Shown here in pieces: positions 13,837-16,813 of a stretch of 51,195 nucleotides of DNA. Made by a program: the position numbers and the translations under genes. The notes beneath the pieces were generated by a model, which was given only the letters and a program-made list of their open reading frames with translations, was not told where the DNA came from and did not search any database. Positions within the stretch are counted from its first letter, which is position 1. Each line of letters starts with the position of its first letter. The stretch is from a virus (taxonomy: Duplodnaviria > Heunggongvirae > Uroviricota > Caudoviricetes): IMG/VR virus record IMGVR_UViG_3300020045_003677, positions 124,098 to 175,292 of that record; one strand, written 5' to 3'.

Positions 13837-14099
13837 CAAAACTAACAATTGAACAAGCATCAACTTTAAATACTGCTAGACTACTAGCATACTACAAAAA
13901 GTATGCTCATTCGTTTCAGTCTAAGTACATATGTGGTTGTTGTGGAGAGTTTATCTGGAACAATGAGGATATGCCTGGAAAGAAGCAAGAGTATGAAGCC
14001 GAGGTAGCCTACTGGGACTCTATAAAGGCAGTTTTAAATACTAGGGAACACGTCCCTTTAAAAAATAATCATGAAGTTAACAGCACCAAAAAACATTAA
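13833..14099 (+). CDS. Hypothetical protein with a CGCC motif
   Basis: ATGA-coupled ORF containing YICGCCGE. Confidence 0.55.
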   Translation: MTKLTIEQASTLNTARLLAYYKKYAHSFQSKYICGCCGEFIWNNEDMPGKKQEYEAEVAYWDSIKAVLNTREHVPLKNNHEVNSTKKH

Positions 14100-15381
14100 C
14101 TACTGTGCTACGGTAGTGGTGATAAAAAATAAAATCGAACTTGCTACATGTGACAATGTAGTAGGCACCATGCTATGCGGGTGTCATGTGATTGTAGGTA
14201 AGGACACTGAGGTAGGAACTGTAGGTTTGTATCTTCCAGTTGAAACCCAACTATCCGCAGAGTTCTTGAAAGCGAACAATCTATACCGCGATAGTACGCT
14301 CAATGCCGACGAAACTAAGAAAGGTTACTTCGATGAGAATGGTCGTATCAGGTGTATTAAATTCAGAGGGCATCAGTCCAATGGGTTATTCATGCCTCTC
14401 GACTGTCTATCTTATCTAGCATCCAAAACCAACCTAAGTGTTGGTGATGAATTCGATGTTATGGATGGGAAAGAGATCTGTAGGAAATATATTCCTAAAA
14501 CTACAAGGACCCCAGGAACTCCCGGCTCAGCTAATAAAAGCAAAGGGCGCAAAGCTCGCGAGTCTAAGTTACTTGAAAACCAATTCAGATTTCATTACGA
14601 TACGGCCCAGCTTGGTAGAAACATGCACAAGGTTAACCCAGACAGCTTGATCTCATTGAGCTATAAAGTACATGGAACCAGTGGTATTAGTTCTAAGATA
14701 CTATGTAAACGCAAGTTAACATGGATTGAGAAATTACTAAAGAAAACTGGCCTTGCTAAGATATCGGAATTTGAGTACGATTATATCAATGCGTCTCGTA
14801 CGGTTATTAAGAATGACGACCTCAATGCTAACCCTAGTGGATTCTATTCAGAAGATATCTGGGGTATTGCCGGTGAAGAACTTAAACCGTATCTGCTTGA
14901 TGGTATGACACTGTATTACGAAATCGTAGGGTATTTACCAGGTGGTGGTGCAATACAGGGGTCATGGGACTATGGGTGTAAACCTGGAGAACATAAAATC
15001 TATGTATACAGAATTACATTCACTAATGATTCTGGTCAGGTGTTCGAATTCAGTGCCAAACAGGTACAGGATTGGTGTAAGCTTAACGGGCTAACACCAG
15101 TAATTCAGTTATACTATGGATATGCAGGACATTTTCTTGGTAAAGAAGTAATGCTCGAAAACAATCTTGACGAATGGAGAGAAGCTTTCTTAGCTAGGGT
15201 TAAAGAACTCTATAATGAGAAAGACTGCTATCTGTGCTATCATAGAGTACCTGAAGAAGGTGCGGTATTGAAGATTGAAGGACTTCTTGCTGAGGCATTT
15301 AAGCAGAAGAGTTTTCGGTTCTTGGACAAAGAGACGCGCGAACTTGACGCTAATAAGATTGACATTGAATCACAAAGTTGA
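14071..15381 (+). CDS. ATP-dependent RNA ligase (Rnl2-like / DRB0094-type with N-terminal OB fold)
   Basis: N-terminal OB-like domain, motif I KVHGT, YYEIVG, YVYRI, EGAVL, FKQKS. Confidence 0.85.
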   Translation: MKLTAPKNINYCATVVVIKNKIELATCDNVVGTMLCGCHVIVGKDTEVGTVGLYLPVETQLSAEFLKANNLYRDSTLNADETKKGYFDENGRIRCIKFRGHQSNGLFMPLDCLSYLASKTNLSVGDEFDVMDGKEICRKYIPKTTRTPGTPGSANKSKGRKARESKLLENQFRFHYDTAQLGRNMHKVNPDSLISLSYKVHGTSGISSKILCKRKLTWIEKLLKKTGLAKISEFEYDYINASRTVIKNDDLNANPSGFYSEDIWGIAGEELKPYLLDGMTLYYEIVGYLPGGGAIQGSWDYGCKPGEHKIYVYRITFTNDSGQVFEFSAKQVQDWCKLNGLTPVIQLYYGYAGHFLGKEVMLENNLDEWREAFLARVKELYNEKDCYLCYHRVPEEGAVLKIEGLLAEAFKQKSFRFLDKETRELDANKIDIESQS

Positions 15382-15382
15382 T

Positions 15383-15863
15383 ATGATAAACGATTTAAAC
15401 AAAGAAATAGTATCCCCTAAGCCTAAGTTGTTAGTGCTACAGGGGATACCGTAATCCAGCATCTGGTAAAACCACTTATGCACGGAAATTAGTTGAAGAA
15501 GATTACTCCTATGTTAGGGTTAACCGAGATGATTTACGTAATATGCGTGGCGTCTACTGGCTACCTTCACAGGAGAAGTTAATCAGTGCCTGGGAGTTTG
15601 ACGCTATTCGTACGGCTCTAAGTCTTGGGTATAACGTGATATCTGATTCAACTAATCTTAACCTATCTACAATTGCTACTCTTACCAATATTGCAAGAGA
15701 GTTGAATGTGGATATAGAATTCAAATTAATCGAAGTGGAATTAGATGAAGCCATACGACGGGACTTACTTCGCCCCAATCCTGTGGGCGCCAAAGTCATC
15801 ACAACTTTTTATAACAAATACATCAGAAATGACGTCAGCAACAACACCACATCCGGGGTTTAA
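15383..15863 (+). CDS. Polynucleotide kinase (T4 PseT-type P-loop domain), interrupted by a 7-nt insert in Walker A
   Basis: ATG 15383 reads ...VLQGIP(CCG 15449)-TAA. The +1 frame resumes CCA(15456) PASGKTT...RVNRDDLR...SDSTNL...RDLLR. Excising 7 nt gives GIPASGKT in a 157-aa kinase. Confidence 0.8.
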
Positions 15864-16233
15864 TAGGAATGTAAGTGGGAAGCATATTAAAGTGTTTCCA
15901 GGAGATGCATTTTGGATGGGTAAGTATCGTCATTCAGGTAATGGTCTTAGTTGTTCTGAGTTGATAGTACCAATGAAGGTGTTTATCAATGAAGCAGGTC
16001 GCATTGTCACTGCTAAAGGTAAGTTAGTATCTAAGCAATATGATACACTATACCATACCGAAGCAGAAGCTAATGACGTGTACAACAGCGGATTAAAGGC
16101 CCATCTAGCTGCTTTAACTAGGAAATCGAAAGAGCTCCTGTTTACTGCAGAGAAAGTTTTAAGTAGGTCCCCATCTTTACGTGGGTCTACTCAGTATCAT
16201 GAATTTAAACATTCATTTGATGATAAAGTATAA
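15829..16233 (+). CDS. Hypothetical protein
   Basis: ORF from ATG 15829. Confidence 0.55.
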   Translation: MTSATTPHPGFNRNVSGKHIKVFPGDAFWMGKYRHSGNGLSCSELIVPMKVFINEAGRIVTAKGKLVSKQYDTLYHTEAEANDVYNSGLKAHLAALTRKSKELLFTAEKVLSRSPSLRGSTQYHEFKHSFDDKV

Positions 16234-16813
16234 ATTAGGAACACATGAGTTGTTCTTTACTTCAGATCCACACTTTGGGCACAAGAACATCATAAAGTAT
16301 TGTAATCGTCCTTTTGCTAATGTGGATGAGATGAATGAGGCTATCATAGCAAACTGGAATGCTAAAGTGCCAGCAACCGGTATAGTATTCGTAGTTGGTG
16401 ATTTCTGTATGGGGTGCTCTGTAAAGAGTATTCTAGAGATTCGCAAACGACTGAATGGTAGAATCATTCTTATTCGAGGAAACCACGATGACTTCATTAT
16501 TGATGTAAACACACGAGAAAAGATATTCGAAGCTGTCTATGATAGGTTAGATATTCGCGTGTTTACCGGGCATGAAGATGTTACGGATTACATCGATATA
16601 GAGATGCACCACTTCCCATCATTAGTATGGAATAACAGTCATAAGGGTGCATGGCAGGCCTTTGGTCACTGTCATAGCAAGCGTAGGATTCCATATCAAA
16701 GCGTGTTTCAACATGATGTTGGTATGGATGGTAATAACTTTACTCCGCTTTCCTTTAAAGAGTTTGGTCAGATCATATCTACTAGGAGATTAGAGGGATG
16801 GGAAACGGAGTAG
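16220..16813 (+). CDS. Calcineurin-like phosphoesterase
   Basis: FFTSDPHFGH, VGDF, RGNHD, HFP, GHCH, DVGMD. Confidence 0.88.
   Translation: MIKYKLGTHELFFTSDPHFGHKNIIKYCNRPFANVDEMNEAIIANWNAKVPATGIVFVVGDFCMGCSVKSILEIRKRLNGRIILIRGNHDDFIIDVNTREKIFEAVYDRLDIRVFTGHEDVTDYIDIEMHHFPSLVWNNSHKGAWQAFGHCHSKRRIPYQSVFQHDVGMDGNNFTPLSFKEFGQIISTRRLEGWETE

Follow-up and report, generated by a model that had tools for sequence, protein, structure and literature searches.

The window analysed here is a stretch of 51,195 nucleotides (nt) of the IMG/VR virus record IMGVR_UViG_3300020045_003677 (Caudoviricetes). It carries a gene for a polynucleotide 5'-kinase that is interrupted by 7 nt within its Walker A motif (P-loop). 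A short open reading frame (ORF) runs from ATG 15383-15385 to TAA 15452-15454 and ends GGG ATA CCG TAA, the stop immediately following the Pro codon CCG 15449-15451. A second Pro codon, CCA 15456-15458, lies in the +1 frame, which reads PASGKTTYARKL... and closes at TAA 15861-15863. This +1 frame is open from 15435 only, and the earliest ATG, GTG, or TTG in it is ATG 15543, located 3' of the P-loop. Our best reading of the locus, to which we assign a probability of about 0.68, is that it represents the relic of a homing cassette without its endonuclease, and that the interruption would be decoded by a 7-nt hop of the ribosome from one Pro codon to the other. The parts of the interrupted gene are the following (positions in the window):

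15383..15451, + strand: gene start carried by the cassette, 23 codons (MINDLNKEIVSPKPKLLVLQGIP), comprising the start codon, a filler with the 5' arm of a hairpin, strand beta-1, and G-I-P of the Walker A motif
15449..15451, + strand: putative take-off codon CCG (Pro)
15452..15458, + strand: 7-nt insert TAATCCA, comprising the stop TAA 15452-15454, U 15455, and the putative landing codon CCA 15456-15458
15459..15863, + strand: remainder of the polynucleotide 5'-kinase, from the predicted resume codon GCA (Ala of GIPASGKT) to TAA 15861-15863

An earlier note on this DNA, made from the letters alone, had placed a stop directly after the Pro codon in the ORF starting at ATG 15383, and had seen no start of the downstream frame's own before the P-loop; the frames given above bear out both statements. 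The note had further held that only the removal of 7 nt restores GIPASGKT, and comparison with homologues agrees. In a protein search with the downstream part of the gene, uninterrupted relatives at 65-87% identity read LLVLQGIPASGKTT at the P-loop. The P-loop of the uninterrupted homologues is LLVLQGIPASGKTTYAR, and one of these homologues, P0006, begins MNDLNKEIVSPKPKLLVLQGIPASGK, the same N-terminus as in the window. The loop G[IL]P[AG]SGK[ST] is constant in length across about 100 homologous loci. Dropping exactly 7 nt from the window gene yields GIPASGKT, which is the loop of the family, whereas a +1 shift yields GIPNPASGKT, a loop length present in none of these homologues.

By reading the DNA behind three oddly short protein matches, we found the same interruption in L001, L002, and L120; it is also present in the IMG/VR contig L006, so that with the window there are five carriers. 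The sequence of L006 is the same as those of L036 and L118. When the related kinase genes are aligned, a check that the earlier note had proposed, the insert with its matched Pro codons is seen at the same codon in all four of these other assemblies. The consensus in the five carriers is CAG GGG ATA CCG TAR T CCN GCN. Two variants of the insert occur in the relatives, TAGTCCA with the other stop (TAG for TAA) and TAATCCT with the other putative landing codon (CCT for CCA). Uninterrupted homologues, L003 among them, lack the insert. Since it occupies the identical position in four further independent assemblies, it reflects neither chance nor sequencing error. A search of GenBank phage records returned no DNA match to 15000-16300. 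No public run was found to contain this stretch: five runs have shares of 0.05-0.12, all of them as contigs and none listed as RNA, and contigs of four of the five gave, at 80% likeness, no coverage of 15416-15523.

Upstream of the insert, the carriers share a hairpin whose 3' arm reaches into the take-off codon:

15410..15418, + strand: 5' arm of the conserved hairpin (GUAUCCCCU), invariant in 5/5 carriers
15420..15438, + strand: inner stem and loop of the hairpin, with seven more pairs that are mostly kept and one-sided changes in L002
15441..15449, + strand: 3' arm of the hairpin (AGGGGAUAC), formed by the Q-G-I codons and the first base of the take-off codon, invariant in 5/5 carriers

The arms pair over 9 base pairs (bp; 15410-15418/15441-15449), and with the inner stem region the element folds at -29.4 kcal/mol (z = -3.2). 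The 3' arm is G-rich and resembles a Shine-Dalgarno sequence. The 23-codon N-terminus that contains the hairpin is common to all five carriers and otherwise occurs only in L003; most uninterrupted relatives begin MAKLLVLQGIP or similar. Within the block the filler varies, while both arms are fixed. The 60 nt 5' of the take-off codon are 87-98% identical among the five carriers and L003, compared with 61-79% for the gene body, and the synonymous sites of the kinase body are saturated between carriers. L003 has the N-terminal block without the insert, and in it GGT stands in place of GGG, a mismatch that breaks the stem. Cassettes within the family have diverged by up to 12% with the key features kept. 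The earlier note had drawn attention to two small complementary stretches, GGAT/ATCC and CCAG..CTGG. Both are present, but the conserved signal is the large 5' hairpin instead: GGAT/ATCC shares bases with the 3' arm of this hairpin, and CCAG/CTGG is broken in L001. In the few sequences available, a 4-bp mini-hairpin over the landing codon (15456-15466) shows a two-sided change: the window and L002 have CCAG..CUGG, L006 and L120 have CCUG..CAGG, and in L001 the pairing is broken.

A pattern scan of all loci collected revealed 13 interrupted P-loop genes, which fall into four cassette families:

window-type family: CCG TAR TCCN, 7-nt gap
L130 family: CCT TAA ACA, 6-nt gap, in frame
'RGVP' kinase family: CCG TAR CTA (6 nt), CCG TGA CA (5 nt), and CCG TAA CCA (6 nt)
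'LRGLP' family: CCG TGA CA and CCG TAA CCA

In all 13 genes, a stop (TAA, TAG, or TGA) directly follows the Pro codon and is itself followed by 2-4 nt. The gap ends in the triplet CCA, CCU, CUA, or ACA, at most one mismatch from CCA (13/13), and the downstream ORF remains open for 117-287 codons (13/13). Each gene also has a hairpin of 7-11 contiguous bp that ends 0-1 nt from the Pro codon, and the arm sequences differ among the four families (GUAUCCCCU/AGGGGAUAC, GGAUCCCUC/GAGGGAUCC, CGCCCCUCUCA/UGAGAGGGGUG, and AGCCCUCG/CGAGGGCU). Among 120 uninterrupted P-loop genes, the median length of the best stem of this kind is 5 bp (Mann-Whitney p = 3.5e-8). Of the 13 interrupted genes, 12 have CCG as the take-off codon, compared with CCG in 27 of 122 uninterrupted P-loop genes. 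No nascent-peptide motif shared across the four cassette families was seen; the 23-residue N-terminus is conserved within the window's family. The downstream frames of the relatives contain no ATG, GTG, or TTG at the equivalent place.

The phylogeny of the kinase body disagrees with a single origin of the carriers. In the maximum likelihood tree, each carrier adjoins an uninterrupted gene: the window groups with L121/L122 (support 96/91), L120 with L124, and L006 with L003. Constraining the carriers to a single clade costs 69.6 log-likelihood units and was rejected by the approximately unbiased (AU) test (p = 2.4e-6); five changes are needed on the kinase tree. Because the kinase tree rejects one carrier origin, the N-terminal block must move horizontally.

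The downstream part of the interrupted gene matches the Pfam family AAA_33 (5e-14) and, in PHROG, phrog_505 polynucleotide kinase (4e-27). The AAA_33 match begins at profile position 8, which places strand beta-1 in the short ORF. PDB matches of P0006, which is uninterrupted, include Pnkp1 (4XRP, 1e-14) and T4 Pnk (1LTQ, 1e-10). The downstream frame is intact over 134 codons, and the residues invariant in the kinase family (Walker A GxxxxGK[ST] and the RxxRDD block) are retained in the window copy. In the database, the record of the window's kinase is a 106-residue fragment (P0004). The gene lies between two genes for RNA repair:

14071..15381, + strand: RNA ligase gene (phrog_968 RNA ligase, 2e-61), 79% identical to the L001 ligase
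16235..16813, + strand: calcineurin-like phosphoesterase gene (phrog_547, 2e-44), the healing partner in the RNA-repair module

The kinase matches, taken with the RNA ligase and phosphoesterase as neighbours, identify the gene as the polynucleotide 5'-kinase of an RNA-repair module. By its sequence it is a polynucleotide 5'-kinase of the T4 Pnk type, and the activity predicted for it, on 5'-OH ends, fits these neighbours. Both partner genes are intact in the window. A 134-residue ORF (15829-16233) overlaps the 3' end of the kinase gene; it has no Pfam or PHROG family match, and its position is conserved in relatives. In some relatives, the ligase and kinase genes are separated by a conserved 74-residue ORF (L003:4780-5004, L127:3780-4004, and L120:1-93).

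In L001 and L002, a gene for a 271-residue protein is located between the RNA ligase and kinase genes. The protein matches the TnsA-like endonuclease N-terminal family (PF08722, 32.2 bits against a Pfam cut-off of 26.5) as well as phrog_15427 'endonuclease', and it contains the D...E-x-K signature and CxxC fingers. The last 12 codons of this endonuclease gene overlap the first 37 nt of the kinase N-terminal block. Upstream of the endonuclease, L001 retains a stub of the native P-loop, GGGATTCCTGCAT. The endonuclease is also present in L130, where the native stub MNVKLIICRGIPG* precedes the nuclease gene. The L130 locus (L130:729-1600) has another gene order of kinase, phosphoesterase, and ligase, and its rebuilt P-loop contains the in-frame 6-nt gap TAAACA. 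A related endonuclease is found in the P-loop of a different gene, a GC-rich AAA ATPase (L131:2509-4642), with a 45-codon native stub (...LWLWSGPGLGL*) upstream. Downstream of it lies a complete, recoded, gapless copy to which the spare start is fused in frame.

At least 114 IMG/VR stretches encode relatives of the nuclease. In 37 of 69 distinct loci, a GK[ST] motif lies within 240 nt 3' of the nuclease stop, and the usual layout at nuclease loci is a spare start that overlaps the end of the nuclease gene and continues in frame into a P-loop gene. A tblastn search of GenBank phage records with two endonuclease queries returned no match. As neither the DNA of the locus nor the endonuclease matches a GenBank phage record, no cultured carrier was found.

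Partly from what these loci show and partly by inference, we regard the start codon, filler, hairpin, and gap as one mobile cassette of a TnsA-like (PD-ExK) homing endonuclease element, which inserts in DNA that codes for Walker A motifs and carries with it a spare start for the gene. The comparisons with relatives establish the anatomy of the cassette, its conservation, its horizontal movement, and, in those relatives, its link to a nuclease. Bringing a spare start together with strand beta-1 would be sensible only if the cassette restores the gene that it targets. In the window, the ligase stop lies 1 nt before the cassette ATG, with neither an endonuclease gene nor a native stub between them. 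No native gene-start stub was found in the window, and no such endonuclease gene is present in the complete 175-kb genome from which it comes (a virus record with terminal repeats). As the complete genome has no endonuclease gene, we classify the window copy as a nuclease-less relic of the homing cassette, the nuclease gene having been lost or never present. The gap probably breaks the target site of the nuclease in the rebuilt P-loop and would thereby confer immunity; a copy without a nuclease would still be shielded from nuclease-bearing relatives in co-infection.

Seen in this context, the 7 nt are most likely the coding gap of a short programmed translational bypass ('stop-hop'). We infer the hop itself, the role of the hairpin, and the immunity. 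In the model, a ribosome would start at ATG 15383, translate 23 codons, and pause there, its P site holding CCG with peptidyl-tRNA-Pro and its A site UAA. Peptide release after proline is slow, so the pause at take-off would be prolonged. The transfer RNA (tRNA) would then release CCG, the mRNA would slide by 7 nt, and the tRNA would re-pair with CCA 15456-15458. Decoding would restart at GCA and give a normal kinase with the loop GIPASGKT. The 9-bp hairpin, re-forming behind the ribosome, would most likely drive or bias the forward slide. The phage encodes a tRNA-Pro(UGG) that is able to read CCG, CCA, and CCU; this tRNA would trade a U-G wobble pair on CCG for a Watson-Crick pair on CCA. According to ARAGORN, the genome contains 22 tRNA genes at G000:C1 53915-55096 and 73216-92627 (outside the window), including tRNA-Pro(UGG).

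The gaps in the other families bear on how such sites could be decoded. If there is no hop, the 5-nt gap needs a -1 or +2 shift, the 6-nt gap readthrough, and the 7-nt gap a +1 shift, and every one of these lengthens the loop. Because the gaps are 5, 6, and 7 nt long, no single type of frameshift or readthrough resolves all of them; a hop alone gives a canonical Walker A motif in 13/13. It seems fairly probable to us, at a confidence slightly below that in our reading of the locus, that the window holds one copy of a widespread natural family of 5-7-nt hops. Its members would be homing elements that target Walker A motifs, with a hairpin, a Pro codon, and a stop in the spare start and a gap that shields against the nuclease. 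A crude genome-wide search for stops that precede a matching codon and a long frame lacking a start found, apart from the kinase site, five weak candidates that are probably due to chance; weak candidates on the + strand, outside the window, lie at C1 5822-5876, 5943-6015, 7733-7796, and 76983-77211.

The earlier note had proposed a programmed bypass that limits the dosage of the kinase. After the comparison with relatives, the hop is the best supported way to decode the site, but the dosage purpose found no support; a hop of modest efficiency would reduce kinase expression as a side effect.

A number of points weigh against decoding of the cassette by a hop. The 13 interrupted genes represent only four lineages, so the statistics given above overstate their independence. 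UAAU is a strong termination context, in which a low hop efficiency is expected. Three of the gap types land on near-cognate triplets (CUA, ACA) and not on cognate ones. The action of the hairpin is a model and not an observation, because the 3' arm lies inside the ribosome at take-off. A Shine-Dalgarno motif is found at 12 of 132 gene starts, compared with 22 of 132 internal ORF controls; this lack of enrichment in the genome makes a reading of AGGGG as a prfB-like element doubtful and favours the hairpin. The window genome has no endonuclease, so immunity would matter here only against co-infecting relatives. The omega (dN/dS) between carriers is about 0.1-0.2, which may largely predate the insertion because the cassette moves horizontally; the strong purifying selection between carriers therefore does not by itself prove that the interrupted genes work. 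A relative-rate comparison suits this question better and speaks for the hop, although its counts are small: private amino-acid changes in carriers and their uninterrupted sisters number 5 and 5, 4 and 7, and 9 and 7, which is no excess in the carriers. As a separate observation, G is depleted upstream of 132 long ORFs genome-wide, which fits a host whose initiation is not led by Shine-Dalgarno pairing.

The gene could instead encode a dead kinase, in which the insert is only an immunity mark or scar, translation terminates at UAA, and no full-length kinase is made. We judge this unlikely. It would suit a selfish, horizontally spread cassette, whose insertions may be recent, with the intact ORFs and the low omega inherited from the uninterrupted state. 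The stop stands in the strong UAAU context right in the P-loop, and an RNA-repair kinase is dispensable in some hosts. However, a spare start and a recoded beta-1 would be pointless if the gene were meant to die, and the downstream frames are long and open in all 13 interrupted genes of the four families. Stop, Pro codon, CCA-like triplet, and adjoining hairpin all persist despite changes in their sequences, the carriers show no excess of amino-acid change, and the ligase and phosphoesterase are intact. Two alternatives in the earlier note belong here. A recent inactivating insertion is contradicted by the 23-codon block with its conserved hairpin, which the carriers share. A mobile-element scar was right with respect to origin, as the cassette moves horizontally, and wrong with respect to inactivity.

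A +1 programmed frameshift of the prfB type at CCG-UAA-U, giving the loop GIPNPASGKT that is two residues longer, is improbable in our estimate. The sequence of the prfB site is AGGGGG-UAU-CUU-UGA-C, and the window's AGGGG-AUA-CCG-UAA-U resembles it: as in prfB (RF2), a G-rich element precedes the P-site codon by 3 nt and the A site holds a stop. In addition, the kinase continues in the +1 frame, where the change from CCA to CCT is likewise synonymous. Unlike in prfB, the P-site tRNA could not re-pair at +1, as tRNA-Pro is unable to do so on CGU, and the +1 product does not match the homologues, its Walker A length being found in none of the approximately 100. The genome shows no use of Shine-Dalgarno sequences, and the host group apparently does without Shine-Dalgarno pairing. 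A +1 shift also leaves the 5- and 6-nt gaps of the sister families unresolved, and it would make the second Pro codon at the exact landing position a coincidence.

Removal of the 7 nt from the RNA, either through two cuts and re-ligation by the neighbouring ligase and healing enzymes or through a process resembling a micro-intron, is very improbable. The gene does lie in a cluster of RNA ligase, kinase, and phosphoesterase genes, and the gap adjoins a hairpin, but the cut that produces the kinase mRNA would have to be healed by the very kinase that this mRNA encodes. The in-frame stops after Pro and the CCA-like last triplets are features of decoding and not of cleavage, and we know of no splicing system that excises 5-7 nt. 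An assembly or sequencing artefact, which the earlier note had also listed, can be dismissed, since the same insert with function-preserving variants is found in four other independent assemblies from different samples and a 7-nt heteropolymeric insertion is atypical of sequencing error.

Two further candidates, reassignment of a stop codon and reinitiation after the stop, were rejected, and a third, quadruplet decoding of the gap, is not supported. Reassignment of a stop codon does not agree with the ORFs, as long frames do not lengthen when TAG, TGA, or TAA is read as sense, and reassignment would not mend the 7-nt offset anyway. A suppressor tRNA that reads UAG (anticodon CUA) is located at 85248-85320; the ORF statistics fit the standard code. 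Quadruplet decoding was considered for three ARAGORN predictions whose anticodon loops are odd ('gaag' at 88342, 'taaa' at 88833, and 'aa' at 92546), but these anticodons do not match CCGU or UAAU. Reinitiation after the stop finds no ATG, GTG, or TTG in the downstream frame before 15543, nor at the equivalent positions in relatives.

Among known systems, the gene 60 bypass of phage T4 is closest to the hop proposed here; this bypass and the mobA cassette were reportedly described by Huang et al. 1988 and Bonocora et al. 2011. As in gene 60, the coding gap is absent from relatives, the take-off and landing codons would be read by one tRNA, and a stop follows the take-off codon. As in gene 60/mobA, the element supplies the start of the gene, is linked to a free-standing homing endonuclease, and has a sporadic, recent-looking distribution. 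What blocks nicking by MobA in T4 is the 50-nt gap rather than the polymorphisms that flank it (Manning and Atkins, bioRxiv 10.1101/2022.08.31.505936). Some mobA/gene 60 lineages have lost the nuclease and kept the bypass, and others have lost the bypass and kept the extension (bioRxiv 10.1101/2022.08.31.505936). The loci studied here resemble this series of decay: the window fits the stage at which the nuclease is lost and the gap is kept, and L003 fits that at which the gap is lost and the N-terminal extension is kept. Pairing in the exiting mRNA has been proposed to drive the forward slide in gene 60 (bioRxiv 10.1101/2022.08.31.505936).

The differences from T4 are also considerable. The gap is 7 nt here and 5-7 nt in the sister families, not 50 nt. 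Because the gap is merely 7 nt, it contains no take-off stem-loop, and the conserved structure is the 5' hairpin that ends on the take-off codon. The tRNA is for Pro and not Gly, and the target is the Walker A motif of small kinases and not a topoisomerase. The nuclease is TnsA-like (PD-ExK), whereas MobA is of the HNH type, and the nascent chain at take-off would be just 21-26 residues long.

The terminase gene of Streptomyces phage phiHau3 contains two 10-nt inserts led by UUA, whose flanks are adjacent in relatives (PMC10732093). For a UAA variant in E. coli, the bypass junction was detected by mass spectrometry (PMC10732093). The present sites share with phiHau3 a short frame-breaking block, a slow A-site codon at take-off, and a 5' stem-loop; in phiHau3, the stem-loop and a flanking Shine-Dalgarno-like element are the proposed stimulators (PMC10732093). 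They differ in that the phiHau3 codon is the rare sense codon UUA, for which a regulatory role through host tRNA is proposed, no homing cassette is described there, and both the gene and the host clade are different.

Weiss et al. 1987 reportedly described 'stop-hopping' in E. coli, in which peptidyl-tRNA leaves the codon in front of a stop and pairs with a matching codon immediately beyond this stop. In contrast to the sites described here, these laboratory events were low-level and occurred on synthetic or chance sequences, with no dedicated stimulator and no natural conservation. Full-text literature searches returned no description of Walker A motifs with stop-containing gaps, nor of this TnsA-like nuclease as a homing enzyme.

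If our reading is true, phages would have, besides T4 gene 60, a second family of endonuclease-linked bypass with a simpler mechanism. The hop would be the first natural stop-hop, and the window would show the device outliving its nuclease. To our knowledge, efficient translational bypass is represented by essentially one well-studied natural family, that of T4 gene 60, which relies on many signals that are hard to separate. Minimal natural variants, built from a hairpin of 9 bp, a single Pro codon, a stop, and a gap of 5-7 nt, would permit direct tests of codon release and landing. Because gene callers split or truncate such kinases, the RNA-repair capacity of phages is under-annotated. The elements would also show homing endonucleases invading the most conserved motif of an enzyme without an intron or intein, by means of a recoding signal of their own.

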